From: Candidatus Hodarchaeota archaeon
GTDB taxonomy: Archaea > Asgardarchaeota > Wukongarchaeia > Wukongarchaeales > Wukongarchaeaceae
Assembly (NCBI GenBank): GCA_048886645.1
Contig: JBHLKN010000016.1
Location: forward strand, 5,904 to 29,903
Length of the DNA: 24,000 nucleotides
Direction: 5' to 3'
Part shown: positions 5,880 through 19,618 of the stretch, piece after piece
Position numbering within the stretch: position 1 is the first letter of the stretch
Layout of the letters: every line of letters begins with the position of its first letter
Notes under the pieces: model-generated
Seen by the model: only the letters and a program-made list of their open reading frames with translations
What the model was told of the DNA's origin: nothing
Databases searched by the model: none
Position numbers and translations under genes: made by a program

Positions 5880-6455
5880 TCATTTTATAACGTAACGATA
5901 AGCTACTAAAACACCAGCAGTAGGGCTTTTTCTCGTAATCTTCACAACTTCCCCTGCACGCGCCCCTACAGCTCGAGCAACGGGGTCGCTCTCTTTTAGC
6001 ATAGATAACTGATTGACTTGGATTCCATACTCCTTGACTATTTTTTCCACTTCTTCTTTTGGAACTATTTCATGTTGTGGCACTAAATCATGAGCAAAAA
6101 TGTCAAAAAAGGCGTATTCGGCAGGTATAAGTTCAATATTCTCATTTCCTGAAACTTCCTTACGCGTATAGTGCGTATATTTACCCACAGTTAACAAAAA
6201 ACCATGGTCTATCTTTCTTTCTTCCATCGACTTTTGCAATTCCCTAACAAATTTAACACCAATCGTTTTAACCTTGGGCAGCCAAGCAACCACATTAATC
6301 TTCTGCCTTCCCTCTTTTTTCTCCCCTAAAATTTCGATCTTATCTCCCACATCTTCTGCGCTAACCGGGGTGTATCCTCTATTCCTAATAACAGCTTTGA
6401 TGCCCTCCACTAATCTCTCATAAACAGCTTTTTCATCAATAGAACTGATTGTCAC
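5880..6455 (-). CDS. rpoH: RNA polymerase subunit Rpo5/RpoH with a eukaryotic Rpb5-like N-terminal domain (full-length Rpb5 architecture)
   Basis: The C-terminal half, HDLVPQHEIVPKEEVEKIVKEYGIQVNQLSMLKESDPVARAVGARAGEVVKITRKSPTAGVLVAYRYVIK, matches the Rpb5/RpoH core (compare yeast HELVPKH...[36 protein letters not shown]). The N-terminal ~115 aa (IKAVIRNRGY..., IGVKFVRELQKSMEERKIDHGFLLTVGKYT) aligns with the yeast Rpb5 N-domain (VKEMVKDRGY..., [30 protein letters not shown]). GTG start. Confidence 0.85.
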   Translation of the reverse strand: MTISSIDEKAVYERLVEGIKAVIRNRGYTPVSAEDVGDKIEILGEKKEGRQKINVVAWLPKVKTIGVKFVRELQKSMEERKIDHGFLLTVGKYTHYTRKEVSGNENIELIPAEYAFFDIFAHDLVPQHEIVPKEEVEKIVKEYGIQVNQLSMLKESDPVARAVGARAGEVVKITRKSPTAGVLVAYRYVIK

Positions 6456-6656: not shown

Positions 6657-8039
6657 ATGGGTTTTAAAAACAAAGCGGTTTTAACAACAGTCTTATTTCT
6701 CTTCATTATGTTTTCCACATCTTTTTCTCACTCATTATCTAAAATTGAATCTAATCCCACGGAAAGGGAATCAATTTCCGATACCACGATACCTGAACCC
6801 GAAGATATTAAGGTTCTTGTAAATTTTGCTGCAAACGTATCTCAATATATTAACAAAACATCTGCAAGCATATTTTTAGATATGTTAGAAAATGAAACCG
6901 GTTTCGATCTCACAGTTTGGGAGAATGAAACTGTTTTTAGGACAAGTTTTACATCCATTGATTTGCAATTTTATGACGTTTTTATTCTCTTTGTTCACTC
7001 CAATTTGACTTTTACAGAGAATGCAATTAATGCATTGAAAGACTTTGTTAAAGAAGGTAAAACCCTTATGATATGTCATGCTCCAGAAAGTACAAACACC
7101 ACGACCAATATCAACAATGTGATCCAATATTTTGGCTTCAAATTCCTTGAAAATGTAACAGTAATAGATCCAGTAAATTTTGAGGACACAAACACCTCAA
7201 TAATAGCCCCATTCTTCTTAGATCAAATCCCTCAAACCCATGTTTTAAACCAAGAAAACGCCTTCCTAATATACCGTGGCATACCCATAATCACCAACAG
7301 TTCCTTAATAAACTCCACGAAACTTGAAGTAGTTGATCATTATAACTTAACATGGGCAAACGTTACCGCTTTTGCTGATAAAAACAATAACTCAGTAAAA
7401 GATTCAGGAGATATTAATGGAACGGATGTAGTTTTAGGCGTTTGCGCTGAAACAGAAAATCAGGGAAGATTTATAGGAATAGGCTCTGTTGCAATGTTTA
7501 ACAACACCTATACAAATGCCACTGGCAATTTTAGCGCTTATGAAAACCTGATGTTTGCCAATGAAACGATAAAATGGCTTGCAAAACTTACGGGCTTAGT
7601 ACTTTATGAGGATATGACCACAGATAAAGAGAAGATAACTTATGGGGAGCAGGTGAATGTTTCTGTAATAATCGAAGACGAAAACATGGAAGAAATCGTA
7701 GCAATAAACGCAAGCATCATAGTACACAAAATCGCCACAATGAACATAACAATGTTAAATATTAGTAGAACGGGAAAACAGTTCCACGCTGCCTATAACT
7801 CCACAACTTTTGAGGAAGCTGGAACGGTAGAATTTTCGGCAAACAGTTCAAAGGTTCGCGGATACACAAACATCACAACATATCCATGGATCATAGTAGA
7901 CGTTTTCCCAAAAGAAACTCCTCGAACATCTTTAAACTCCACCGCTTTAATACTCATAACCATGGCTACAATAGTAACCCTTGCAGGTCTTGGAGCTTAT
8001 GCCTTTAGAATAGCCCGTCTAAAAAAGCGCGAAAAATAA
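6657..8039 (+). CDS. Secreted, C-terminally membrane-anchored, heavily N-glycosylatable surface protein
   Basis: N-terminal signal-like segment AVLTTVLFLFIMFSTSFS. There are 26 N-X-S/T sequons by hand count in 460 aa. The C-terminal TM helix ALILITMATIVTLAGLGAYAF is followed by the basic tail RIARLKKREK. The segment YDVFILFVHSNLTFTENAINALKDFVKEGKTLMICHA looks like a ThuA/DUF4350-type flavodoxin-like module (weak). Confidence 0.75.
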   Translation: MGFKNKAVLTTVLFLFIMFSTSFSHSLSKIESNPTERESISDTTIPEPEDIKVLVNFAANVSQYINKTSASIFLDMLENETGFDLTVWENETVFRTSFTSIDLQFYDVFILFVHSNLTFTENAINALKDFVKEGKTLMICHAPESTNTTTNINNVIQYFGFKFLENVTVIDPVNFEDTNTSIIAPFFLDQIPQTHVLNQENAFLIYRGIPIITNSSLINSTKLEVVDHYNLTWANVTAFADKNNNSVKDSGDINGTDVVLGVCAETENQGRFIGIGSVAMFNNTYTNATGNFSAYENLMFANETIKWLAKLTGLVLYEDMTTDKEKITYGEQVNVSVIIEDENMEEIVAINASIIVHKIATMNITMLNISRTGKQFHAAYNSTTFEEAGTVEFSANSSKVRGYTNITTYPWIIVDVFPKETPRTSLNSTALILITMATIVTLAGLGAYAFRIARLKKREK

Positions 8040-8876: not shown

Positions 8877-10214
8877 ATGCATAAGCACGGGGAGAAATTA
8901 CCCCTCATCTCAGCTGGCTTTAAATATCTCCTTAAGAAATTAAATAGTGGTGAAACTTTGAGGTTCAAGAAAAGTATATTGCTTAACTGTCTGCCTTTAA
9001 CTGCTAAAAAAGAACAGATTCTCGATAGTTTTTTTATTGAATATCTCGAAGTCCTCAATAAAACCCTTAAACATTTACCGGAGGCCAAGTCTTCTACCGA
9101 ACTGCACCATCTAACATATTCAAACATACGCAAAACATCCTTCCTTCCATCTGATATTATCCAAGAAGCTCGAAAGGATGTTTGGGCTAAGAGAAAAACT
9201 GTTAAGAGCGGTTTTAAAGGATGCTCTATCAGACTTAATAAAAGGTGGTTCAGACTCTTTGAAACTTTTAGAGGTACTCCGTGTTTCAAGATCACTTATT
9301 CTCCTCGCAAAAGCTTTGTAATCCCTGTTAAGCTTGACAAAGGTTATGAGAGGTTCAAAGAGTTTCTTGAAGATAGTTGGAAAATTAAGTGCATTTCCCT
9401 CCTTAATGGTGGCAAGATTGCGGTTTGTATTGAGAAAGATTTTCCCGAACCTTCTAATAAAAAAAGAAGATATATTATTGGGATCGATATCGGTTCTTCC
9501 ACCCTTGCGGCGGTAACTGTTTTTGATTCTAACACTTATAAAGTAGCTAAACAACTTTACTTTGGAAGAGGCGTCGCTAAAAGTCAGAGGAGATACGAAG
9601 AAAGAAGGGGTAAACTTCAAAGTTATGCTGATAAAGGCTCTAAAAAAGCCAAGAAATACTTGAGAAGGATTAAAATTAAACAGAGAAACTTTGTTAAGAC
9701 AAGAAGCGGGCAGATAGCTAAGGAAATTGTTAATCTTGCCCTTGAGAATAACGCTTCTATTTCAATTGAAAAGCTTAGTATTAGGGGGAAGAAGCGTAAG
9801 TTTAACAGGAAGGCTAACAGGAAGATTAACCGCATTCCTTACGCTCAGTTCAGAGAGTTTCTTAAAAGTAACTGCATTAAACACGGTATCCCTCTTCGCG
9901 AAATTGATTCTTACCACACTTCCAAATGGTGTCCTCACTGCGGTGCAGTAAACAAAGGACGCTCATCTCCTAACTACGCTTTGTATATCTGTAAGAACTG
10001 CGGTTTGGTTGTGAATAGCGATAGAAAAGCCTCCTTGGCTATAGCTATAAAATCCCTCTTGCAGCAGACATCAAACCAAGGCTTCAAAAGACCTTCTTTT
10101 GTCCAGATTTCCAAGAGAAGAGTCCCTGTAAACGGACTCGTTCATCCAGATGATGAGGGTTTGAGTTTTGCTGTACAACATATCACCCCTCAAATGGAAA
10201 GCTCCTTCCGTTAG
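8877..10214 (+). CDS. tnpB: TnpB/OrfB RNA-guided-nuclease-type transposon protein (RuvC + zinc ribbon)
   Basis: 445 aa with RuvC-I YIIGIDIGSSTLA (D), RuvC-II ASISIEKL (E), zinc ribbon CPHCG...CKNCG and RuvC-III VVNSDRKASLAIA (D). The N-terminal half is typical of the archaeal OrfB_IS605 type. Confidence 0.9.
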   Translation: MHKHGEKLPLISAGFKYLLKKLNSGETLRFKKSILLNCLPLTAKKEQILDSFFIEYLEVLNKTLKHLPEAKSSTELHHLTYSNIRKTSFLPSDIIQEARKDVWAKRKTVKSGFKGCSIRLNKRWFRLFETFRGTPCFKITYSPRKSFVIPVKLDKGYERFKEFLEDSWKIKCISLLNGGKIAVCIEKDFPEPSNKKRRYIIGIDIGSSTLAAVTVFDSNTYKVAKQLYFGRGVAKSQRRYEERRGKLQSYADKGSKKAKKYLRRIKIKQRNFVKTRSGQIAKEIVNLALENNASISIEKLSIRGKKRKFNRKANRKINRIPYAQFREFLKSNCIKHGIPLREIDSYHTSKWCPHCGAVNKGRSSPNYALYICKNCGLVVNSDRKASLAIAIKSLLQQTSNQGFKRPSFVQISKRRVPVNGLVHPDDEGLSFAVQHITPQMESSFR

Positions 10215-10221
10215 GGAGGGG
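10202..10221 (+). other. 8-bp stem / GTTA tetraloop hairpin spanning the tnpB stop codon (candidate right-end / omega-RNA terminal stem)
   Basis: ctccttcc (10202-10209), gtta, gggagggg (10214-10221) give 6 Watson-Crick and 2 G-U pairs. The stop TAG is at 10212-10214. Confidence 0.55.
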
Positions 10222-10225
10222 TAGT

Positions 10226-10489
10226 TTACTTTAACATGCCTACATACGTTCGTGTCTCCACGATCTCAGGATTTTCCCGCCTTATCGACGAAACAACATC
10301 ATCAAGCTCACGCATATTCCTAGCCTCAATAAGAACAGCTAAATCATAGTCTCCATAGACGGGAAAAGCTAATTTAACAAACTCTTTTTTTACTAACTTT
10401 TCGCAAAGATTCCACTCTTTGCCAACCTCACACCGCATCAGCAAAAAAGCTACAACAGTTGGCCCTTTTTCTTCTTTCAACAAAATCAC
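10226..10489 (-). CDS. Stand-alone Lrp/AsnC-type RAM (ligand-binding) domain protein
   Basis: 87 aa, VVAFLLMRCEVGKEWNLCEKLVKKEFVKLAFPVYGDYDLAVLIEARNMRELDDVVSSIRRENPEIVETRTYVG. This fits the beta-alpha-beta-beta-alpha-beta AsnC_trans_reg pattern, and no HTH is present. Confidence 0.72.
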   Translation of the reverse strand: MILLKEEKGPTVVAFLLMRCEVGKEWNLCEKLVKKEFVKLAFPVYGDYDLAVLIEARNMRELDDVVSSIRRENPEIVETRTYVGMLK

Positions 10490-10564
10490 CCAGCAAACTC
10501 TTTTTTACATCTGATTTAAAATTTTTTGAGCAAATATTTTACAACTAAATATAAAAATATAGAG

Positions 10565-10577
10565 CTATAATTATTTA
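10565..10577 (+). promoter_or_regulatory. TATA-like box upstream of tRNA-Arg
   Basis: ctataattattta lies about 25-35 nt upstream of the mature tRNA 5' end, the appropriate spacing for an archaeal TATA/TSS. Confidence 0.35.
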
Positions 10578-10600
10578 CAATTGTTGGTCAGTTGGTAAAG

Positions 10601-10678
10601 GGGCCCGTAGCTCAGTTTGGATGGAGCACCAGCTTGCGGAGCTGGGGGTCGCGGGTTCAAATCCCGTCGGGCCCGCCA
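10601..10678 (+). tRNA. tRNA-Arg (anticodon GCG), CCA encoded, no intron
   Basis: Manual cloverleaf: acceptor GGGCCCG/CGGGCCC, D arm GCTC-AGTTTGGATG-GAGC, anticodon arm CCAGC-TTGCGGA-GCTGG, variable GGGTC, T arm GCGGG-TTCAAAT-CCCGT, discriminator G, then CCA. Confidence 0.93.
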
Positions 10679-10805
10679 AGCCCCTTAAAAATATTATTTG
10701 CCTCTAAATATAGTTAAAAGGAAGGAAGGGTCGGTATTACAATGATGATATCTTCTTTTTTTAGCATTCTTTATTCTTTTAATATAGGGTCGGGGTTGGT
10801 TTTTT

Positions 10806-12407
10806 TTGAGGACGAGAGATGGTCGCAATGGCGAAGTTGTTCATTGTGCTTTTTGTGGTGATGCATTTTCTATAGATCTTCTGCTTTTTTGCAGAAGTTG
10901 TGGCGCGATTATCTGTTGTAAATGCTTGAAAAGGGATTATTTCAAAGCGTTTTTCTGTAGTTATTGTTCTGCCCTCGTCCCAGAAGAGACTATTTTCTGC
11001 CCTGTTTGTAGACGTAGAAGTGAAAAAAAACAGGGAAATACCACCATCAGGATGTGTCCTAGTTGTCTTTCTAGAGATATCCATCCGGTAATCGAGGAAA
11101 GAAAATTTTTAGTTATTTCCTTCCGTGACCTAGTATTAAAGTTGAGACATGAGTTTACAAATATAGCAGACTTTGTTTCAGTCTTTAACTCTGTTATAAA
11201 TCGGGGAATTTTACTGCGTAAAAATAACTTTTTACACTATCCGATTATTGAACGGTCATTGAACGATATCCATAAAGGTTTTCCGACTTGCTTAAAAGAA
11301 CTTGAAGAAGTAACCACTTATACGGCAAGAAGCCTCGCGCAACATGTTCTCGCCTTCTCCCGACCTACCCAAATGAGTCCCCTTGATCTAAAAGCTAATT
11401 TTACAGTTCGAAAAACATTATCAGACGAAGTAGAAGTTTTTGAAAATCTAGTCTCGCGAAAATTAGGCTTTTTTTCCGATCGTTTAAAACAGGCTGAAAG
11501 ATCTGTGAAAAGGATGGAAAAAACAAAGACTGTTTTTGATAAATTATCAAGGTTCATCGAGATAATGCCAGGTGAATCGCCTGTTTACATATATCGATAT
11601 AAAAAAATTGCTAACACTCCAAGAAACATCAATCTAAAAAAAGGCAGAGGATATATTATTTTAACAGATCAACGAATAATTTTTGTGCCCCTAAAAGGGA
11701 TAAATCTCAAAACTGGAGAGAAAAGCCAGACTGATTCATCAAACTTTTACGCTTTAGATCTTGAAAAAACTCACATGATAGACGTGACAAAACACTTTTT
11801 TTCACGTAAAAAAGTGATTTTTAGGACCGAGGAAGGCGAGTACGTGTTTTTATTTTCTACAAGAGAAGTTGGTAGACTTAAAGACGCTTTCAAGTTTTCT
11901 AAGAAATATCATGATTACACTTCCAAAAATAGTTCTTTTCTCGAACAATTAGCCCGTGATAAAATAAATATAGACCCCTTCAAAAAGAGAATTGAAAAAT
12001 ACATCGATCATATTCTTTTCCCGCTTGGTTTAAGCCAAAAACAAATCTTCGGAGATATTAAAGACGATTATTACCCGTTTGATTTCGTTGATTTTTCAGA
12101 TATAACCCATTTGGAAAATAATTATCACGCGATTATCAAAGTTTTAAACAAACTGGATGAAAAATTTCAAAGAGGCGAAATAAACAGCCCCGAATATATG
12201 CGTCAAATGAATTATTATAGAAATCTTTTAGAAAGTAATTATTACGGGATTATCAAAGTGTTAAACGCTCTCCATGATAGATTTGAAAGAGGTGAAATAA
12301 ACGGCCCTGAATATATGCGGAACATCAAACATTATAATCAGCAAAAGTTTATTATTAGAAGAGAATTAGAACGTAGAAAAGCACGCTTTGGGAGTCCATT
12401 CGCATAA
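10806..12407 (+). CDS. Multidomain protein: N-terminal FYVE/PHD-spaced Cys8 zinc finger plus an extra zinc ribbon, helical linker, GRAM/GLUE-like PH domain, two SHOCT-like C-terminal repeats
   Basis: CAFCGDAFSIDLLLFCRSCGAIICCKC...CSYC has FYVE spacing (compare EEA1 [28 protein letters not shown]...CDAC) but lacks the basic RRHH motif. Further CPVC...CPSC follows. KGRGYIILTDQRIIFVP ... KKVIFRTEEGEYVFLFSTREVGRLKDAFKF fits the GRAM/PH pattern. The 40-aa repeats IIKVLNKLDEKFQRGEINSPEYMRQ and IIKVLNALHDRFERGEINGPEYMRN are SHOCT-like. TTG start. Confidence 0.8.
   Translation: MRTRDGRNGEVVHCAFCGDAFSIDLLLFCRSCGAIICCKCLKRDYFKAFFCSYCSALVPEETIFCPVCRRRSEKKQGNTTIRMCPSCLSRDIHPVIEERKFLVISFRDLVLKLRHEFTNIADFVSVFNSVINRGILLRKNNFLHYPIIERSLNDIHKGFPTCLKELEEVTTYTARSLAQHVLAFSRPTQMSPLDLKANFTVRKTLSDEVEVFENLVSRKLGFFSDRLKQAERSVKRMEKTKTVFDKLSRFIEIMPGESPVYIYRYKKIANTPRNINLKKGRGYIILTDQRIIFVPLKGINLKTGEKSQTDSSNFYALDLEKTHMIDVTKHFFSRKKVIFRTEEGEYVFLFSTREVGRLKDAFKFSKKYHDYTSKNSSFLEQLARDKINIDPFKKRIEKYIDHILFPLGLSQKQIFGDIKDDYYPFDFVDFSDITHLENNYHAIIKVLNKLDEKFQRGEINSPEYMRQMNYYRNLLESNYYGIIKVLNALHDRFERGEINGPEYMRNIKHYNQQKFIIRRELERRKARFGSPFA
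12117..12356 (+). repeat. Intragenic 120-nt (40-codon) tandem duplication encoding the two SHOCT-like modules
   Basis: NNYHAIIKVLNKLDEKFQRGEINSPEYMRQMNYYRNLLES is followed by NYYGIIKVLNALHDRFERGEINGPEYMRNIKHYNQQKFII. The similarity is also visible at the DNA level (attatcaaagt[t/g]ttaaac..., agaggcgaaataaacagccccgaatatatgcg versus agaggtgaaataaacggccctgaatatatgcg). Confidence 0.85.
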
Positions 12408-12607: not shown

Positions 12608-13300
12608 TTATTGGGAAGACGATTCTAATTGTTTTTTTAGAAGTTTTAGCTCCTTTTCTACTTCTGCTTCTTCTGCTTCCAGTTTTTCTTTGTCTACTAC
12701 ACGGGTTTCTTTTGGTCTTTCTACGGAGGTTCTGGATACGGGTTCAGTAGTTACTGCTTCTGCTCCCACAAGTTGCTTTTCCATAGCGGCGATCTCTGCA
12801 TCAATAGCGTCTTCTATTTCTAGCTCAAGTTCTGCTTCGGCAGAAGTAACATCAGCAAGGGCTTCATCAGCCATAGAAGCCCTTTCCATCCCCTCTTCAA
12901 GACGTACCATAAGTTCTTCTGTTACTTCCGGTCCCACTTCCCTCAAACCCTCATTTATAACTATATCTGCCTCTCTGAGAGCGCCACTAAGCTCAATATT
13001 ATCTTTCACAGTTTCGATGGTCTCTATTATACGATTCATGTTAAGGATTTTATTCTCTGTACTTTCAAGCTTCTTAAGGTAAAGCTGTCTCCTCAATAAA
13101 GATTTTTTTGCTCCCATCTTATTGCCATCACGAAGCATTTCCATAGCTAACGAACGTTGTTCATCCGCTTTACGCCTTATGGCCCTTGATTTAAGTTCAA
13201 AACGATTTATAACAGCCCTAAGCTTAGCTATGGTTTCTGATGGTTTTCTTCTTTTATCCCCAAAGAGAAAATTCTTAATGCCCATTATCAAAATCTCCAT
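12608..13300 (-). CDS. ESCRT-III protein, Snf7 family (Vps20/32/60 = CHMP4-7-like)
   Basis: The N-terminus MGIKNFLFGDKRRKPSETIAKLR resembles CHMP6/Snf7 N-termini. A basic helical hairpin (RKADEQRSLAMEMLRDGNKMGAKKSLLRRQLYLKKLE) is followed by an acidic C-terminal half and the terminal amphipathic helix EKELKLLKKQLE. ATG at 13300 or 13285. Confidence 0.85.
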   Translation of the reverse strand: MEILIMGIKNFLFGDKRRKPSETIAKLRAVINRFELKSRAIRRKADEQRSLAMEMLRDGNKMGAKKSLLRRQLYLKKLESTENKILNMNRIIETIETVKDNIELSGALREADIVINEGLREVGPEVTEELMVRLEEGMERASMADEALADVTSAEAELELEIEDAIDAEIAAMEKQLVGAEAVTTEPVSRTSVERPKETRVVDKEKLEAEEAEVEKELKLLKKQLESSSQ

Positions 13301-13417: not shown

Positions 13418-16141
13418 TTATGTTCTTCCTTCAATTACTCTTTTTAATTCAGAAACAACAGAAAGATTCGGAGGACTTATCGTAAATACAATTTCAAGAC
13501 CATCCTCTAAAAGAGCAAAAATAATCCCAAGTTTCATCCCTCCTCTGTCAAAAATAACCGTAGGAAACTTCTCATCTTCCTGGATCTTTACTATTTTCCA
13601 CTCAACGTCCCTAATGCGTGAAATAACAATAGAGGCACTATTTGACCCTGTTAAACCTAATTTTATCGAGGAAACCTCGTAAGGTAGAATCCTACCGTCC
13701 TTGCTTTTTGCCACGGCGTCGGTAAAATGGGGATACAAAAGTTTACGTTTTAAAAAATCTTTAAGGAGACTTTTCGGCACATCACTCGGAGATATAATTG
13801 AAATCCCTCTCATAACATCAGTCTCATCCTCCACCATAACCTTTACTTCACTAGGAGGAGTAGGAGCTTCAACATCAATATCGACCATACCCTCTTCCTC
13901 TAGAACTTCGGAAACAAGTTCCAGAACCTCTTCAATGGGGGATGGTTCGGGTTTTTCCTCCATCTTCGGCCTGGCTTCTCTCCCAGCATGCATAGAAGAC
14001 CTAGCCCTTATCGCTACAACAATCGCCCTATCCGACTCTTTATCAGAAACTATGGCGACTCCTACCGGGAGTCTTCTTACAAAATCCGCGCTTTTTAACT
14101 CATCAGGTATAGGGGAAGGCGCACGTTTTATATACGCTTTCACATCATCTTCATAGGTTAAAGTGTGCACAATCATTAAATCCGCTTGGGATAATACCCT
14201 TGGATCTGTTGCACTTGGTTGTTGAGTACAAACTAACAAGGCGCAACCTGGTTTCCGTCCTTGTTTCGCATATTCAACTATGGGTATGCTTGCTGCTGTT
14301 TCCTTTCTTGAAGGTACAAGAAGGTGTGCTTCATCTATCGCAAGCCAAGTAAAAGGTATTTCCTCCCTTCTCATCTCTTGGACTTCTTTCCCCACCTCTA
14401 CTAACATTTCTTCTGTTTCCTCATACCTTGCAGCTTTTGTCCTCTCTCTAAGGATTTTACGCGCTAGTATACCCACAAAAAGTGCACGCAAACCCTCCCC
14501 TAACCTCGGATGGCTGACATCAATAACCGTTACCTGATTTGGAACGCTCAACTCTGTTAAAGGCGTGCCCACTTCAGCAAAAACCCCCCACTTTTTCGCA
14601 GAATTAAGCCTTGCAACCGCCGCTCTCTGCGTAGTTCTTGAAAATCCTACAGTCTTTGACGATATATCAACATCCCTTTCAATACACCTTGTTAAGTCAT
14701 CAATAGTGAAGTTTTCCTTCCCTTCAACCGCTACTTGTTCGCCTTCTTCAAATTCAGCTATATAGCCTTTCTTCGCTTTATCTATAGCTTGAGCTATAAG
14801 CAGTCCTTGGGGTCCAAACCTATCAATCCCAAAAGAGTGGCACCAATCATCAACTGAAAGCTCAGAAGCAGATATTGAAAACCTAGCGTCCCAACTTTCA
14901 GGGGGAAAATCAGAAGCAAGCTCTATCGGCACATACACCTTAGTATTCGGGTAACCCTTGGGTCTCATACCCCACTTTTCAAGGATCTCGATCTCTTTCT
15001 TCTCAACATTGCAATGTTTCATAGAATAAAAAACGCCTAGAGGATCAATTACTATGATTCCTATACCCAGATTCGATCGCGCTAACTCTTCAGCCAAAAC
15101 CCCCATCGTATAACTCTTACCACTACCCCTATGACCGCAAATAAAAACAACGTACGGAAAACCAGCGTTAATAACAACAGACTTTCCATAAATCTCTTCC
15201 ATCTCCCCGACATCGCTTGTTTTCATACCCTTTTCTGCAACCCTCCCTATGAAAAGGGCTCCTTTACATCCTACACCTTTCTTTACTTTAAACTTTTTAC
15301 CTAAAACCACTGCATCTTTTAACGGCGTATACCTCGGCTTTGAAGGAGCTTTTACGAGATACTTCCTTTCCTCAAGCAGTTTCGACCAATAACTATCCAA
15401 TCCTTCGCTAACCAGAAGCTCCCCTTCTACCGCTCCAAAACCCCACCTTAACCACTCAACTTCCTCCTTCCCTTCCATTCTTTTCGCTATCTCGTTCCTT
15501 GAAACAATCTCTGCGGGATAAAATTTCGGATCACAACCACTAACGTCCCATAAAATAATGTCTAACTTCACGTTTAAATCTTTAAAAGCTCCCTCATTAT
15601 CGCCCTTATTAAGCGAAGCGAGCGAACTATAAGCTTTTTCTAAAAGATCTTTCTCCTGGGTTACAATATAGAGGGCGCATAGACCCCTAACCTTATTTTC
15701 CCCTTCTAATCCTTCAGTGATTTTCTGGGCTATAGCCAAATCTTCTTCTTTTTCTGTTAAAAGATAGGAAAAAGATAAACCCATAACTGCTGGCCAATCC
15801 TTTCCTTCTTTACGGAAAAACTCTGAAGCGTTTTCAAAAATTTCTTTTTGAACCTCCACAACTTCCCTTGCATAAAATAAAGCTCTTAAAGAATGGGCGG
15901 AAAAAAGCTCTAAATCATCCCCTTCTTCTGTAAAGAAGCTTCCATCTGCTTCCTGCCGTGTTAAAAGCCCAAATACTACCTCTTGCATTCTTGCTTTAAT
16001 CCATTCCTCTCCAGTAACTTTGTAAGCATGAAATAACGCTTCAAAAAAAGAAGGACGAACCCTCTCTTCCACTCGATCCAATCTCTCTAAACTCTCAGTG
16101 AGGGGTGGAAGTATCTGACATAAAGGCCTTCCTATCTCCAA
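13418..16141 (-). CDS. 907-aa HerA/FtsK-superfamily (COG0433/DUF87-like) P-loop ATPase with novel N- and C-terminal domains
   Basis: Walker A FICGHRGSGKSYTMG (about 15113-15136) and Walker B FTWLAIDEAHLLVP. HerA-type distal motifs are KQGRKPGCALLVCTQQPSATDPRVLSQADLMIVHTL and RARSSMHAG. The N-terminal ~290 aa are helical repeats (one QEADGSFF terpenoid-cyclase/prenyltransferase-like turn). An acidic linker precedes a ~130-aa alpha/beta C-terminal domain. TTG start (uncertain). Confidence 0.85.
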   Translation of the reverse strand: MEIGRPLCQILPPLTESLERLDRVEERVRPSFFEALFHAYKVTGEEWIKARMQEVVFGLLTRQEADGSFFTEEGDDLELFSAHSLRALFYAREVVEVQKEIFENASEFFRKEGKDWPAVMGLSFSYLLTEKEEDLAIAQKITEGLEGENKVRGLCALYIVTQEKDLLEKAYSSLASLNKGDNEGAFKDLNVKLDIILWDVSGCDPKFYPAEIVSRNEIAKRMEGKEEVEWLRWGFGAVEGELLVSEGLDSYWSKLLEERKYLVKAPSKPRYTPLKDAVVLGKKFKVKKGVGCKGALFIGRVAEKGMKTSDVGEMEEIYGKSVVINAGFPYVVFICGHRGSGKSYTMGVLAEELARSNLGIGIIVIDPLGVFYSMKHCNVEKKEIEILEKWGMRPKGYPNTKVYVPIELASDFPPESWDARFSISASELSVDDWCHSFGIDRFGPQGLLIAQAIDKAKKGYIAEFEEGEQVAVEGKENFTIDDLTRCIERDVDISSKTVGFSRTTQRAAVARLNSAKKWGVFAEVGTPLTELSVPNQVTVIDVSHPRLGEGLRALFVGILARKILRERTKAARYEETEEMLVEVGKEVQEMRREEIPFTWLAIDEAHLLVPSRKETAASIPIVEYAKQGRKPGCALLVCTQQPSATDPRVLSQADLMIVHTLTYEDDVKAYIKRAPSPIPDELKSADFVRRLPVGVAIVSDKESDRAIVVAIRARSSMHAGREARPKMEEKPEPSPIEEVLELVSEVLEEEGMVDIDVEAPTPPSEVKVMVEDETDVMRGISIISPSDVPKSLLKDFLKRKLLYPHFTDAVAKSKDGRILPYEVSSIKLGLTGSNSASIVISRIRDVEWKIVKIQEDEKFPTVIFDRGGMKLGIIFALLEDGLEIVFTISPPNLSVVSELKRVIEGRT

Positions 16142-16251: not shown

Positions 16252-16872
16252 TCAACTCTCCTCTTCGCGTAAACGTTCTAATTCTTCCTTAATCTCTTTC
16301 TCCCTTGCTGATGGGGTAGGAAGACCGTGTTCTGTAGTTACGCTTACAACCGCCCCTGCTTCCCCAAGAATTCTTGTAACTTCTGCATCGTCAATATCCG
16401 CACTTAAAGCTCCTTCAAGTTCCACATCAATAGCTTCTGTTGAAACTTCAATACCAGTAAGACCTTCTTCTAAAGCATCTATATATCTACTTAGTTGGGG
16501 AAGTCTAAGCGAACGGTTAAGTTGCCTAAGAGATATAGCCAAACCCTTCATATCTTTTGCAAGACTCTGAACAGCCTCCGTATGCTCCATCTTAGCAATA
16601 ATTCCCTTAAGCCTAGAATTCAACCTCGCACAACCCAAAGCAAAACGCCTACTCCTTACAACGTCTTGAGCATAGACTTTCGCAGCCTCCATGTCCCCCT
16701 GTTCTACAGACCTCCTAACCTCTTTCATCATCTTATTCTCGTCCTTCTTCAACTTCATGCGTTGCCTTTCAATCCTACGTTCTATCAACCTAAGGCGAAT
16801 AATCCAATCACGAGTACTACGACCACCCATCAACCAATTAACAAACTTACCGAAAACCAATGAAATCACCAA
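16252..16872 (-). CDS. ESCRT-III protein, Vps2/24/46 (CHMP1-3-like) family
   Basis: IERRIERQRMKLKKDENKMMKEVRRSVEQGDMEAAKVYAQDVVRSRRFALGCARLNSRLKGI matches the CHMP2/Vps2 alpha1-alpha2 hairpin pattern. The C-terminal half is acidic and ends in EIKEELERLREEES (MIM1-like). Hydrophobic N-terminus SLVFGKFVNWL. Start is TTG 16872, GTG 16869 or ATG 16830. Confidence 0.85.
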   Translation of the reverse strand: MVISLVFGKFVNWLMGGRSTRDWIIRLRLIERRIERQRMKLKKDENKMMKEVRRSVEQGDMEAAKVYAQDVVRSRRFALGCARLNSRLKGIIAKMEHTEAVQSLAKDMKGLAISLRQLNRSLRLPQLSRYIDALEEGLTGIEVSTEAIDVELEGALSADIDDAEVTRILGEAGAVVSVTTEHGLPTPSAREKEIKEELERLREEES

Positions 16873-17713: not shown

Positions 17714-18880
17714 GTGATAGCAATGTCAAAAGGTCGTCAGAAAGAGCTTTCAGCCATGCAGGAGCTTCATCAATATGTCATTTCTTATGCTAAGAAAGCT
17801 ATTGAGCACGAGAAGAAAGGTCAGAAAAAAGCGGCTTTAGACAACTATATTAAAGCTGTGGAAATTCTTAATAAGATGATTAGGTGGGCTCCAACGCCTG
17901 AGCAAAAAGAGGCTTACTATAAAAAAGCTAAGACATATCTTTCTAGGGCTTGGGAGATTAGAAAGGAGCTGAAAGCGCCTAGAGGAGAGATAAGTGCGGA
18001 AAAAGGAGAGTTAAGTGCTGCTATTCAAGATGCTATAATCACGGAAAGGCCTACGATAAAGTGGGATGATGTTGCTGATTTAGAGTCTGCTAAGCAAGCT
18101 TTAAGAGAGGCGATAATCCTCCCGTTATTACGCCCTGATCTATTTAAAGGGGCTCGTAAACCTTGGAAGGGCGTCTTATTATTTGGACCACCGGGTTGCG
18201 GTAAAACCCTCTTAGCTAAGGCGGTTGCTTCCGAATGTGATGCCACTTTTTTTAATGTTAGTGCCGCTACTTTAGTTTCAAAGTGGTTAGGGGAGTCTGA
18301 GAAGCTTGTAAGGGAACTTTTCAAGTTTTCAAGAGAAAAACAGCCTTCAATAGTTTTCTTTGACGAAGTTGATGCTATAGCTACTACGAGGGGAGGGACA
18401 GAACACGATGCCATTAGGCGGGTGAAACTTCAATTAATGCAAGAAATGCAAGGGTTGATGTCTGATAGCGAGCAGATGGTCGTAATTGGGACGACTAATA
18501 TTCCCTGGCATATTGATCCTGCCTTTAGGCGTAGGTTTGAAAGGCGGATTCTAGTTCCCCTTCCTGGAAAGGAGGCAAGGGAACAGATTTTCAAGATTCA
18601 TACCAGGGATGTAGAATTGGATGAAAGCGTAGACTTTAGCCTTCTTTCAGAGATAACTGAAGGGTTTTCTGGGGCAGATATTGAAATAGTTTGCCGAGAA
18701 GCGATTATGAATCCTGTAAGAGAAATGGATAAAAGCGGTCTATTGAAGGATAAAGAAGCAAAAATAAGACCTGTTACAATTGGAGATTTCGAAAAAGCTC
18801 TTCAAAAAATAAAACCCACAGTAGCCCCAGAAGAACTCCTTGCCTACGAAGAATGGCAACAAGAATTTGGAAGCGTTTGA
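17714..18880 (+). CDS. vps4: Vps4-type AAA+ ATPase (N-terminal MIT domain + single AAA cassette)
   Basis: MIT-like three-helix region AKKAIEHEKKGQKKAALDNYIKAVEILNKMI...YYKKAKTYLSRAWEIRKEL. Walker A GPPGCGKT, Walker B IVFFDEVD and SRH/arginine fingers TNIPWHIDPAFRRRFERRI. The likely start is ATG 17723 (the track ORF begins at GTG 17714). Confidence 0.94.
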   Translation: MIAMSKGRQKELSAMQELHQYVISYAKKAIEHEKKGQKKAALDNYIKAVEILNKMIRWAPTPEQKEAYYKKAKTYLSRAWEIRKELKAPRGEISAEKGELSAAIQDAIITERPTIKWDDVADLESAKQALREAIILPLLRPDLFKGARKPWKGVLLFGPPGCGKTLLAKAVASECDATFFNVSAATLVSKWLGESEKLVRELFKFSREKQPSIVFFDEVDAIATTRGGTEHDAIRRVKLQLMQEMQGLMSDSEQMVVIGTTNIPWHIDPAFRRRFERRILVPLPGKEAREQIFKIHTRDVELDESVDFSLLSEITEGFSGADIEIVCREAIMNPVREMDKSGLLKDKEAKIRPVTIGDFEKALQKIKPTVAPEELLAYEEWQQEFGSV

Positions 18881-18883
18881 ATT

Positions 18884-19618
18884 TTGAGAAAGAGAAAAAC
18901 AGGAATATTGAAAAAGTGGCATGAAATAGCTGAAAAATTTGCAAAGGAAACAGATGTCCAATTAGAAGATCGCATTATTTTTTCATGGGATAATTTCAAA
19001 GAAAGGATTCTTTCTTTGAAAAATCGTTTGGGGTTTAGTGGTGAAACTTTAGACTTTTTGGGCTATTCGGTTGATCTAAACACTGGGGGCGTAGTTGACC
19101 GTTTACTTGACTATACCTTGGATAAAAATCCTTTTGTCAGTTATCTGGCTTATTATTCTGAATCTTTTGAGACTGTTTTGGATGAGGATAGGTGGATTAA
19201 GTTCCGGCATTTGCCTGGCGGTGTATCGTTTGAAAATGCTTTTAGGGTTCAGGTTGAGGGATGGATTTTAAACCGTTTTTTAGAAGATGATGAAGACATT
19301 TTGAGAGATGAGAAGATAGCAGAAAAGGCTTTAGTTTTAATCGGGGCTAAGCGTGAGAAGTTTGGCGATTTTTCCTTTTCTATTAACACCTTGCCCCGTG
19401 TAACGCTTGCCGTTGTTTATAATGAAGGTGTTGAAGAGTTTGAGCCAAATGTTTCGGTTTTTTTTAAAGAATCTGCTCAATATTACCAGCCTACCGAGCT
19501 TCTAGCTCACCATGGAGTACTGCCTATGGTTGCTTTTGAACGGGCTAGAAGAGCGGTTTTAGGCTTTGAAGAAAGCGGTTTGCCGCAGTTTATTAGTAAA
19601 TATTTACGGTTTGATTAA
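18884..19618 (+). CDS. Uncharacterised protein, DUF3786-like by motif pattern; starts 4 nt after the vps4 stop
   Basis: 244 aa with a TTG start 4 nt after the vps4 stop codon. WIKFRHLPGGVSFENAF and FGDFSFSINTLPRVTLAVVYNEGVEEFEPNVSVFFKESAQYYQPTELLA recall the DUF3786 pattern (..W.GDEEF....lFD.sa..yl.tEdl), recalled from memory. The basic N-terminal helix is MRKRKTGILKKWHEIAEKFAK. Confidence 0.6.
   Translation: MRKRKTGILKKWHEIAEKFAKETDVQLEDRIIFSWDNFKERILSLKNRLGFSGETLDFLGYSVDLNTGGVVDRLLDYTLDKNPFVSYLAYYSESFETVLDEDRWIKFRHLPGGVSFENAFRVQVEGWILNRFLEDDEDILRDEKIAEKALVLIGAKREKFGDFSFSINTLPRVTLAVVYNEGVEEFEPNVSVFFKESAQYYQPTELLAHHGVLPMVAFERARRAVLGFEESGLPQFISKYLRFD

Follow-up and report, generated by a model that had tools for sequence, protein, structure and literature searches.

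A divergent Znr_CC_PH_SB protein encoded beside ESCRT-III genes in a Hodarchaeota archaeon is a candidate ESCRT-I-like adaptor

To our knowledge, neither ESCRT-0 nor Vps36 has been found in Asgard archaea. Which protein, then, might bring the ESCRT machinery of these organisms to a membrane? A 24,000-nucleotide stretch of DNA from Candidatus Hodarchaeota archaeon (hereafter the window) contains a gene that bears on this question, as it lies next to ESCRT-III genes. A first-pass annotation of the window described the encoded protein as a candidate upstream membrane- or cargo-targeting adaptor with a FYVE-like zinc finger, a GRAM/GLUE-like PH domain and two SHOCT-like segments, a domain combination that it considered undescribed for ESCRT components. 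We examined the protein, its relatives and their gene neighborhoods.

The gene is a 533-aa open reading frame with a TTG start, as confirmed from the sequence (Table 1), and the features read from it earlier (the Cys8 spacing, the CPVC/CPSC pair, the PH motif and two C-terminal repeats) are all present. The protein is identical to MFX0162300.1 (Candidatus Hodarchaeota archaeon, "hypothetical protein"), and "hypothetical" is its label in Hodarchaeota and Wukongarchaeota MAGs. Many automatic gene calls drop the N-terminal 82 aa, giving 451-aa versions that start at M83 and have the zinc module cut off. Since these 82 residues are conserved at the protein level in 77%-identical relatives, the long 533-aa ORF is the correct one. 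No NCBIfam model matches the window protein and, when it is searched alone, its Pfam matches to the steadiness box, the PH domain and the B-box are all under the curated cutoffs. These assignments become convincing only through family profiles and fold prediction. The AlphaFold2 model (mean pLDDT 86, pTM 0.68) was built on a near-identical variant, P0001, set apart from the window protein by the two loop substitutions T303N and G304E.

Table 1. Coordinates, within the window, of the gene, the modules of its product and the neighboring ESCRT-associated genes
Feature	Position	Strand	Description or basis
Whole gene	10806..12407	+	533-aa Znr_CC_PH_SB-type protein
12-Cys zinc module (aa 14-87)	10845..11066	+	Six CxxC pairs, capacity for three Zn sites
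Helical stalk (aa 95-247)	11088..11546	+	Predicted helices 95-139, 147-185 and 192-247; AlphaFold2 pLDDT mostly >90
PH domain (aa 255-366), GRAM/GLUE/bacterial-PH type	11568..11903	+	Foldseek and family profiles
Short helical segment (aa 378-407), then disordered linker (aa 411-431)	11937..12098	+	AlphaFold2
Steadiness-box region (aa 433-529)	12102..12392	+	39-aa unit duplicated in tandem, three helices
ESCRT-IIIB (Vps20/32/60-type, Snf7 family, 230 aa), convergent neighbor	12608..13300	-	Pfam Snf7
HerA-like (DUF87) ATPase, 907 aa, between the two ESCRT-III genes	13418..16141	-	Context
ESCRT-IIIA (Vps2/24/46-type, Snf7 family)	16252..16872	-	Pfam Snf7; PDB matches CHMP2A (4.4e-14), CHMP1B, CHMP3
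Vps4 (MIT + AAA + Vps4_C)	17714..18880	+	Domain matches
Vps25-type ESCRT-II subunit, N-terminal extension of ~96 aa	19751..20509	+	PF05871, E = 2.6e-17, aa 97-210

A phmmer search of 1.84 billion representative proteins recovered 51 relatives that are collinear with the window protein over aa ~10-410, although members outside its own clade are at most 26% identical to it. Searching for homologues with the family alignment returned close relatives only, while a locus search with the Loki-type subset of the alignment returned three loci, including that of Lokiarchaeum ossiferum. The combination of domains had already been published. Makarova et al. (2024; mBio 15:e00335-24, PMC10936438) described an Asgard-specific architecture of zinc ribbons, coiled coil, PH domain and steadiness box as Znr_CC_PH_SB (asCOG cog.011556), and predicted that it belongs to ESCRT-I and that its PH domain binds membranes. 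The same four modules occur in the window protein, which has six CxxC pairs, long helices before the PH domain, the PH domain itself and a C-terminal steadiness box. The designated cog.011556 member, As_004-p_01543 of Lokiarchaeum GC14_75, lies in an L35Ae-X-MetE-Vps20 arrangement (PMC10936438). Two relatives recovered by phmmer, P0033 (E = 2.4e-14) and P0050 (E = 1e-8; 41% identical to the L. ossiferum member), have loci that share this arrangement, L35Ae-X-(MetE)-Vps20. By its architecture and, indirectly, through these two relatives, the window protein is most probably a divergent member of Znr_CC_PH_SB.

All named members are from Asgard archaea (Hod-, Wukong-, Loki-, Heimdall- and Promethearchaeota, including the cultivated L. 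ossiferum); the family is Asgard-only insofar as its members carry taxon names. One 3.7-kb contig is labeled Aenigmarchaeota, and its protein clusters at 90% with one from Heimdallarchaeota. With the published family the window protein shares the order of modules, the restriction to Asgard archaea, the adjoining Vps20-type ESCRT-III gene and the predicted role. However, three extra residues separate its Cys pairs 1 and 2, and the loop from pair 4 to pair 5 is shorter. It differs further in the 39-aa duplication of the steadiness box, which occurs only in its own Wukong/Hod clade, and in the HerA-like ATPase gene that separates the two ESCRT-III genes of its cluster.

The C-terminal repeats, which are 64% identical to each other (E = 4e-17) and appear as a 117-bp period at 12110-12336 in Tandem Repeats Finder, had been read as two SHOCT helices. 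We rejected this identity. Pfam SHOCT (PF09851) gives E = 0.072 (13.3 bits; cutoff 27), while in the same region (aa 482-518) Vps23_core scores about 1000-fold better (E = 5.6e-5, 23.5 bits; cutoff 26.8) and also matches 11 of 39 family members. Searched against the PDB, the family profile matches the solved steadiness boxes of yeast Vps23 (2p22_A/2f66_A, E = 6e-6), TSG101 (1.6e-3) and VPS37B (0.018). A single-sequence search of the PDB with the C-terminal 108 aa found nothing relevant; the steadiness box is seen by profiles only. On this profile evidence, the repeats are an ESCRT-I steadiness box (Vps23_core) that has been duplicated in tandem, with the second 39-aa unit and the last helix as the counterpart of the Vps23-type hairpin. 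The protein thus resembles the ESCRT-I subunits Vps23/TSG101, Vps37 and Vps28 in its C-terminal hairpin and, for Vps23 and Vps37, also in having a long helical stalk ahead of the steadiness box. Within the stalk, R138 and E149 are positions of family-wide conservation. Unlike ESCRT-I subunits, the window protein has neither a UEV domain nor a Vps28 C-terminal domain by Pfam or in the AlphaFold2 fold, and its stalk is modeled as an intramolecular three-helix bundle, not as part of a heterotrimeric coiled coil. Eukaryotic ESCRT-I, for its part, lacks the PH and zinc modules.

The GRAM/GLUE-like PH domain proposed earlier held up. Fold prediction gives a PH domain and not some other beta domain, and structure comparison of the model confirms that it is of the GLUE/GRAM type: Foldseek matches PH domains in the PDB with E values down to 1e-5, and the best single-domain match is the yeast Vps36 GLUE domain (2cay_B, E = 3.5e-5, TM 0.56). 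The same GLUE domain (2cay_A) is the top PDB match of a family profile restricted to the PH domain, with a sequence-level similarity that is marginal (E = 0.02). Among the 39 family members, Pfam assigns bPH_3 to 20, GRAM to 5 and Vps36_ESCRT-II (PF11605) to 2 (best E = 4.3e-5); on the window protein, PF11605 gives no match at E up to 10. The hairpin motif, G-x-[ILV]-x-[LIF]-T-x-x-R-[ILV]-x-F, is represented by GRGYIILTDQRIIF at aa 280-293. The basic beta1-beta2 loop (YRYKKIANTPRNINLKKGRG) varies across the family, making a canonical phosphoinositide pocket doubtful. C-terminal to the PH domain, residues 411-431 have AlphaFold2 pLDDT below 50. This PH-to-steadiness-box linker is of low complexity and spans 11-278 aa in the family, the window protein being in the shortest class; P424, which had appeared to be a conserved linker residue, is an alignment artefact produced by Pro-rich, low-complexity linkers that differ so much in length. 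ESCRT-0 recruits UEV domains through P[ST]xP motifs. In the family linkers these motifs are not enriched (6 observed versus 4.8 expected), and none occurs in the window protein.

We also compared gene neighborhoods. As first annotated, the gene is convergent to a Snf7-like gene. The product of this neighboring gene, ESCRT-IIIB, has as its best PDB match the Heimdallarchaeota ESCRT-IIIB (9ftl_A, E = 1.1e-28) and also matches yeast Snf7. The linkage recurs in distant relatives: of 11 independent contexts, 9 have a convergent ESCRT-IIIB orthologue at a distance of 0-2 genes (0-4 kb) downstream, and ESCRT-IIIB orthologues adjoin the family gene in L008, L010, L011, L013, L014, L015, L016 and L017. 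The distant locus L013 repeats the HerA arrangement, with a HerA-like protein that shares 38% identity over 815 aa. Vps4 and Vps25 genes are present in both the window and L010, and at L008 the family gene is 8 kb from a Vps22/Vps28/UEV operon. No EAP30, Vps23, Vps28 or Vps22 gene occurs within the window, in which the only ESCRT-II gene is of the Vps25 type, bearing out the earlier statement that Vps22/36 EAP30 genes are absent from it. The N-terminal extension of this Vps25 was considered as a steadiness-box-like segment and rejected, as it gives no Pfam signal. No ESCRT gene lies within 10 kb at two loci, L006 and L012, which carry ribophorin-I/OST and glycosylation genes instead and hold the closest relatives outside the window protein's own clade. 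Overall, orthologs do neighbor ESCRT genes, and they are not widespread in ESCRT-less lineages.

From these data, we infer with a probability of roughly 70% that the window protein is a Znr_CC_PH_SB member acting as a candidate ESCRT-I-like adaptor upstream of ESCRT-III. The upstream membrane- or cargo-targeting role proposed in the first-pass annotation is plausible. As such an adaptor, the protein would dock through its PH domain on a membrane or on a ubiquitin-like mark. Its steadiness-box hairpin could pack onto the steadiness boxes of other subunits to form a headpiece-like helical assembly, the candidate partners being UEV-Vps23, Vps28, a steadiness-box-bearing Vps22 or Vps25, or a second copy of itself. 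UEV-Vps23 has been reported in Wukongarchaeia (Lu et al., 2023) and is a possible partner. The zinc module and stalk might serve as a rigid arm for binding cargo or partners. The assembly would then help to nucleate ESCRT-IIIB at the membrane, with ESCRT-IIIA and Vps4 acting afterwards.

The alternative that survives best, although we consider it improbable, is that the protein recruits ESCRT-III directly, as crenarchaeal CdvA does. Its PH domain would bind the membrane, and ESCRT-IIIB would be recruited or nucleated without an ESCRT-I/II cascade, in division, vesicle budding or repair, with the steadiness-box hairpin serving for self-association or for contact with ESCRT-IIIB. CdvA is a membrane-binding ESCRT-III recruiter whose gene adjoins those of ESCRT-III and Vps4. 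By HHpred, its hairpin is reported to be similar to the steadiness box (Makarova et al., 2024; PMC10936438). The constantly linked gene is that of ESCRT-IIIB, not Vps23, Vps28 or Vps22, and no ESCRT-I gene lies near the family gene in the window clade, both as expected of a direct recruiter. However, convergent orientation precludes co-transcription with ESCRT-IIIB, the L008 operon puts Vps22, Vps28 and a UEV protein only 8 kb away, and no ESCRT-III-binding peptide was identified in the window protein, whereas CdvA has an E3B peptide and a PRC barrel and lacks zinc and PH modules. Moreover, the steadiness boxes of ESCRT-I pair among themselves in solved structures (PDB 2p22 and 6vme), which also counts against a direct recruiter.

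The zinc module raises a different possibility. Cys 14, 17, 29, 32, 37, 40, 51 and 54 have exactly the spacing C-x2-C-x11-C-x2-C-x4-C-x2-C-x10-C-x2-C, and with CPVC (65-68) and CPSC (84-87) there are six CxxC pairs (14/17, 29/32, 37/40, 51/54, 65/68 and 84/87). In alignments of 37-39 family members that are only ~20% identical overall, each of the 12 Cys is either invariant or conserved to at least 90%. Of the FYVE-like Cys8 finger annotated at first, the spacing stands, but the FYVE identity does not. "DLLLFCRSCG" occupies the position of the FYVE motif RRHHCRxCG, and the PI3P motifs WxxD, R(R/K)HHCR and RVC are absent from both the window protein and the family consensus. Pfam FYVE (PF01363) scores 13.3 bits on the window protein (E = 0.09; cutoff 27.8 bits) and is absent among the best 25 of the 30 Pfam families listed for the 39 members, 14 of which match zf-B_box and 6 an ANCHR-like B-box. 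When the N-terminal family profile is searched against the PDB, FYVE comes after RING, B-box and PHD chains: RING E3 ligases (RNF4, 2.9e-7; RING2/BMI1; TRIM21) and B-boxes (TRIM2, 6.5e-5; TIF1-beta; MID1) are matched, compared with rabphilin at 0.008 and the EEA1 FYVE domain (1hyi) at E = 0.051. Foldseek with the isolated module model (pLDDT 93) yields no match below E = 0.05, the best FYVE domain being 2yw8 at E = 1.5.

The weak sequence matches of the zinc module lean to B-box and RING fingers over FYVE. As the module is followed by a long helical stalk, reminiscent of RBCC proteins, the protein could be pictured as a TRIM-like scaffold of B-box and coiled coil, in which a cross-brace RING/B-box finger would bind E2 or ubiquitin and couple the ubiquitin system of Asgard archaea to ESCRT. 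We think this very unlikely. The RING and B-box matches are all weak, and scores of this kind are raised by a composition rich in Cys. The RNF4 alignment does not agree ligand by ligand, and the modeled module has no significant structural match. In the AlphaFold2 model, unbroken 10-residue strands run between Cys pairs 3 and 4 and between pairs 5 and 6; these are unlike a compact RING or B-box and make the module a poor fit to a contiguous Cys8 cross-brace. Makarova et al. (2024; PMC10936438) read it as three zinc ribbons.

It is harder still to believe that the protein is a generic zinc/PH protein unrelated to ESCRT, with incidental proximity to ESCRT-III. The two loci with ribophorin-I/OST and glycosylation genes in place of ESCRT genes, and an OST48-like gene upstream in the window, would fit this, but the same ESCRT-III paralogue is the neighbor in 9 of 11 contexts despite the low identity among members, the steadiness-box module is elsewhere specific to ESCRT-I-type proteins, and in a sister subfamily it is replaced by EAP30. 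Least credible, and largely refuted, is an ESCRT-0-like adaptor that would join a FYVE-type lipid finger to SHOCT oligomerization helices in an undescribed combination: a Cys spacing that also fits PHD and B-box1 patterns, the weak Pfam FYVE and SHOCT matches, the EEA1 and rabphilin scores and the proposed upstream position recall Vps27/Hrs, but the PI3P motifs, VHS and UIM are missing, Pfam FYVE is far under its cutoff, the C-terminus is better explained by Vps23_core, P[ST]xP motifs are not enriched, and the architecture is already in print (PMC10936438).

The sister subfamily (P0089, P0103 and P0104) retains the zinc module, stalk and PH domain and carries an EAP30 winged-helix domain in place of the steadiness box, which is, as judged from sequence, a Vps36-like architecture. 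The likeness to Vps36/EAP45 extends to the window protein, whose GRAM-like PH fold is closest, among solved structures, to the Vps36 GLUE domain in Foldseek and profile searches alike, shares with it the aligned motifs "L..GE" and "G.[ILV].LT..R[ILV][ILV][FY]", and lies on the same polypeptide as zinc fingers. In contrast to Vps36, the zinc module is N-terminal, not inserted into the PH domain, and is not an NZF finger, and the window protein ends in an ESCRT-I-type steadiness box, not EAP30. The current proposal is that Vps36 arose de novo during eukaryogenesis, and Hatano et al. (2022) reported that they found no Vps36 homologues in Asgard archaea. A tentative and rather unlikely idea is that the PH domain is a direct archaeal homologue of the Vps36 GLUE domain and that the EAP30-bearing sister subfamily is a pre-eukaryotic, Vps36-like ESCRT-II subunit. 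If this were true, Vps36 would not be a de novo product of eukaryogenesis. Instead, a single Asgard "zinc-stalk-GLUE" cassette for membrane targeting would have given rise to both, joined to ESCRT-I through a steadiness box in the window protein and to ESCRT-II through EAP30 in Vps36.

The concept of a membrane adaptor of this kind is already known (Makarova et al., 2024; PMC10936438), and the window adds no new concept. What it adds is that the family reaches the Wukong/Hod lineage in a form whose steadiness box is duplicated, that the zinc module is often lost from automatic gene calls (the 451-aa versions), that the constant partner is a Vps20/32/60-type ESCRT-III gene, convergent in 9 of 11 contexts, that the PH domain resembles the GLUE domain of Vps36 most closely, and that a sister subfamily bears EAP30. 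We know of no other widespread ESCRT-linked protein in Asgard archaea with a predicted membrane-binding PH domain, and the family is thus an obvious candidate for the targeting step of Asgard ESCRT. With a constant ESCRT-IIIB partner, a GLUE-like PH domain and an EAP30 sister subfamily, the origin of Vps36 and of the bridge between ESCRT-I and ESCRT-II becomes directly testable.

The target gene is a real feature. Its ORF begins at a TTG and encodes 533 aa. GenBank has the identical protein as MFX0162300.1, a "hypothetical protein" of Candidatus Hodarchaeota archaeon; relatives that are 77% identical carry the label Candidatus Wukongarchaeota. Many public gene calls of the target and its relatives start at an internal ATG (M83), yielding 451-aa products that begin one residue ahead of the sixth CxxC pair and are without the other five. 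Since the zinc region is conserved at the protein level in relatives and its 12 cysteines are invariant across the family, the 533-aa ORF is the correct one. About 130 bp separate the TTG from an upstream tRNA-Arg(GCG) gene.

With the window protein as query, phmmer, run exhaustively against 1.84 billion representative proteins, returned 51 matches at E<1e-3, nearly all collinear with aa ~10-410, 20-26% identical and 480-1171 aa long; a word-indexed search returned close relatives only. Members with a named taxon were all Asgard (Hod-, Wukong-, Loki-, Heimdall- and Promethearchaeota), bar one on a 3.7-kb contig called Aenigmarchaeota. As its protein shares a 90% cluster with a Heimdallarchaeota protein, this label probably reflects faulty binning. 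A member is also encoded by the cultivated Candidatus Lokiarchaeum ossiferum, whose genome is complete. The first-pass annotation had considered the domain combination undescribed, but the architecture is in print as Znr_CC_PH_SB (asCOG cog.011556; Makarova et al., PMC10936438). These authors find the family in several Asgard lineages and in no eukaryote, and consider that it probably goes back to the ancestor of the phylum. They predict that it belongs to ESCRT-I and that its PH domain, by analogy with Vps36, associates with the membrane. In their Table S2, the Lokiarchaeum GC14_75 member is flanked by L35Ae and MetE, and Vps20 follows. Exactly this arrangement surrounds P0033, a family member that matches the window protein at E=2.4e-14, and member P0050 has a variant of it. 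Thus, the window protein belongs to a known, experimentally uncharacterised family, as a new and divergent member.

Upstream of the target, the window encodes GAPDH, Toprim, M24 peptidase, CofC/CofD, Rpb5, OST48-like and TPR proteins, TnpB, an AsnC-type regulator and tRNA-Arg; downstream are a convergent Snf7, a HerA-like ATPase, a second Snf7, a methyltransferase, Vps4, DUF3786, Vps25 and PolB. The proximity to ESCRT-III genes and the convergent Snf7 gene, both remarked on from the sequence, recur elsewhere. The adjoining Snf7 gene is ESCRT-IIIB (Vps20/32/60 type; best PDB match Heimdallarchaeota 9ftl_A, 1.1e-28) and the second is ESCRT-IIIA (CHMP2A/1B/3 type). In loci L010, L011, L008, L013, L014, L015, L016 (the L. 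ossiferum context) and L017, the family gene is followed, after 0-2 genes (0-4 kb), by a convergent ESCRT-IIIB orthologue; members in these independent contexts are only about 20% identical. In L010, where Vps4 and Vps25 are also present, and in L014, this neighbor was missed by Pfam and identified as a BLAST orthologue. With the window clade (the Wukong and Hod relatives nearest the window protein) counted once, ESCRT-IIIB is near the family gene in 9 of 11 contexts, and loci L006 and L012 have no ESCRT gene within 10 kb of it. ESCRT-IIIB is also the partner in the main rival to an adaptor role, in which the protein would recruit it directly, as a CdvA-like factor.

Other genes of these neighborhoods deserve mention. 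The HerA-like (DUF87) ATPase (907 aa) is encoded between the ESCRT-IIIB and ESCRT-IIIA genes and has the same placement in the distant Asgard locus L013 (38% identity over 815 aa); the ESCRT survey (PMC10936438) does not mention it in its main text. Since it scores far under the HerA equivalog thresholds, it is a distinct HerA/FtsK-superfamily protein. A DUF3786 gene separates Vps4 and Vps25 in the window clade (also in L001 and L003), and the two are immediate neighbors in L010. The family gene repeatedly has oligosaccharyltransferase-type genes in its vicinity: the window has an OST48-like gene, and ribophorin-I adjoins the family gene in L006 and is 7 kb off in L012, the two contexts without ESCRT genes. 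The pattern may be coincidental or may point to a connection with glycosylation of membrane proteins. In three distant lineages, an Arf/Roc-type small GTPase gene, with a longin/roadblock-like fusion in two of them, lies 2-3 genes upstream of the family gene; the window has none. The TnpB (IS605 OrfB-type) gene, with Cas12f1-like TNB and OrfB_IS605 domains, is missing at the corresponding position in syntenic relatives L001 and L003 and is therefore a recent insertion. The Rpb5 gene product joins an N-terminal Mrr_cat-like (restriction-endonuclease fold) domain to the Rpb5 C-terminal domain, resembling two-domain eukaryotic Rpb5, unlike short archaeal RpoH.

Positions of genes in the window and related loci, and of segments in the AlphaFold2 model
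Feature	Where	Position	Strand
Rpb5	window	5880-6455	-
OST48-like	window	6657-8039	+
TnpB	window	8877-10214	+
tRNA-Arg(GCG)	window	10601-10678	+
Target gene	window	10806-12407	+
Internal ATG (M83)	window	11052	
Steadiness-box DNA repeat	window	12110-12336	
ESCRT-IIIB	window	12608-13300	
HerA-like ATPase	window	13418-16141	-
ESCRT-IIIA	window	16252-16872	
DUF3786	window	18884-19618	+
HerA-like ATPase	L013	6038-9079	-
Ribophorin-I	L006	11889-13673	
Ribophorin-I	L012	12219-13991	
Arf/Roc-type GTPase	L006	7757-8704	
Arf/Roc-type GTPase	L008	8065-8922	
Arf/Roc-type GTPase	L011	3008-3589	
P0089 gene	L008 (Promethearchaeota MAG GCA_048939465.1)	10001-11806	
Zinc module, beta-rich	model	aa 11-94	
Three long helices	model	aa 95-247	
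Beta-sandwich and C-terminal helix (PH)	model	aa 259-366	
Short helical piece	model	aa 378-407	
Disordered linker	model	aa 411-431	
Three C-terminal helices	model	aa 433-529	

On the window protein alone, every Pfam match fell under its curated threshold; the best was Vps23_core, the ESCRT-I steadiness box (E=5.6e-5, compared to 0.072 for SHOCT, 0.09 for FYVE and 0.14 for bPH_3). Over 39 members, Pfam returned bPH_3 (20/39), zf-B_box (14/39), Vps23_core (11/39), ANCHR-like B-box (6/39), GRAM (5/39), Vps36 GLUE (2/39) and EAP30 (1/39). When a family profile was compared with all PDB sequences, the top matches were the yeast Vps23 steadiness box in the ESCRT-I core (2p22_A, 2f66_A E=6e-6; 2caz_A), with TSG101 (1.6e-3) and VPS37B (0.018) next. 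Thus, the C-terminal helices, initially read as two SHOCT domains, are a steadiness box, and the SHOCT label is rejected. The two repeats are present: in the window clade a 39-aa unit is duplicated in tandem (protein copies 64% identical, E=4e-17; DNA period 117), and other members have a single copy.

The AlphaFold2 model, built from a 39-sequence alignment, had a mean pLDDT of 86 and a pTM of 0.68. Foldseek searches of the PDB returned PH-containing proteins, upholding the proposed GRAM/GLUE-like module with its signature GRGYIILTDQRIIF; the best stand-alone PH domain was yeast Vps36 GLUE (2cay_B, E=3.5e-5, target TM 0.56, 18% identity). A PH-only profile matched just four PDB sequences at E<=5, Vps36 twice (2cay_A 0.02, 1w7p_D 0.061) and two bacterial PH domains, and the family motifs "L...E" and "G.l.lT..Rl.F" paired with Vps36 "LREGE" and "GRIFLTSQRIIY". 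The beta1-beta2 loop is strongly basic in the window protein; this feature is clade-specific and not family-wide, which weighs against a canonical lipid pocket.

The zinc module has the cysteine spacing first noted (C14-x2-C17-x11-C29-x2-C32-x4-C37-x2-C40-x10-C51-x2-C54), "LLLF" ahead of CRSCG and a second ribbon pair, CPVC (65-68) and CPSC (84-87). Searching the PDB with a profile of aa 8-96 retrieved RING domains first (RNF4 2.9e-7, RING2/BMI1, TRIM21), B-boxes second (TRIM2 6.5e-5, TIF1-beta, MID1, PML), then a PHD finger, with FYVE-type domains lower (rabphilin 0.008, EEA1 0.051). Ligand by ligand, the RNF4 alignment was inconsistent, while the B-box alignment was consistent for the first six ligands. 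Modelled alone (AF2), the module reached pLDDT 93; Foldseek found no match under E=0.05, the best being dynactin p62, assorted zinc ribbons, PHD, RING and FYVE (E=0.05-3). Since both AF2 models have unbroken 10-residue strands between Cys pairs 3 and 4 (aa 42-51) and 5 and 6 (aa 74-83), as judged from secondary-structure strings, simple geometry would argue against both the Cys8 cross-brace first proposed, which needs pairs 2 and 4 on one zinc, and plain sequential ribbons pairing 3 with 4 and 5 with 6. A TRIM-like ubiquitin scaffold is a minor rival reading. So is the original FYVE/SHOCT version, with an ESCRT-0-like role. The FYVE label is unsupported, and the whole family lacks the PI3P-binding motifs. 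The linkers of the family show no enrichment of P[ST]xP motifs, which counts against an ESCRT-0-like role.

A sister subfamily of three clusters (P0089, MFX1485568.1; P0103; P0104; mutual identity 64-75%) keeps the 12 cysteines, stalk and PH domain, with EAP30 winged-helix domains substituting for the steadiness box. EAP30 exceeds the curated threshold (PF04157, E=1.8e-11), with PDB matches to Vps22 (5.5e-6) and Vps36 (3.4e-3), and the PH part matches the Pfam Vps36 GLUE model at 1.8e-4. In L008, ESCRT-IIIB lies 0.6 kb downstream of the P0089 gene and a Vps22/Vps28/UEV operon 8 kb upstream. Eukaryotic Vps36 likewise combines GLUE with EAP30; the subfamily shows a Vps36-like architecture in Asgard archaea, where Hatano et al. 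(2022) identified no Vps36 homologue. No reference to this architecture turned up in the papers searched.

That the window protein has no ESCRT role at all is a minor rival. The general idea of an upstream ESCRT adaptor is reasonable in outline, with two domain labels wrong, and we infer that the protein is most likely an ESCRT-I-like adaptor. Its PH domain would bind membrane, or possibly a ubiquitin-like mark, and the zinc module and stalk would form a rigid interaction arm. The steadiness box may pack with those of other subunits, or with a second copy of the protein itself; UEV-Vps23, reported in Wukongarchaeia (Lu et al., 2023), is a possible partner. Such an assembly would promote ESCRT-IIIB nucleation, with ESCRT-IIIA and then Vps4 acting afterwards.
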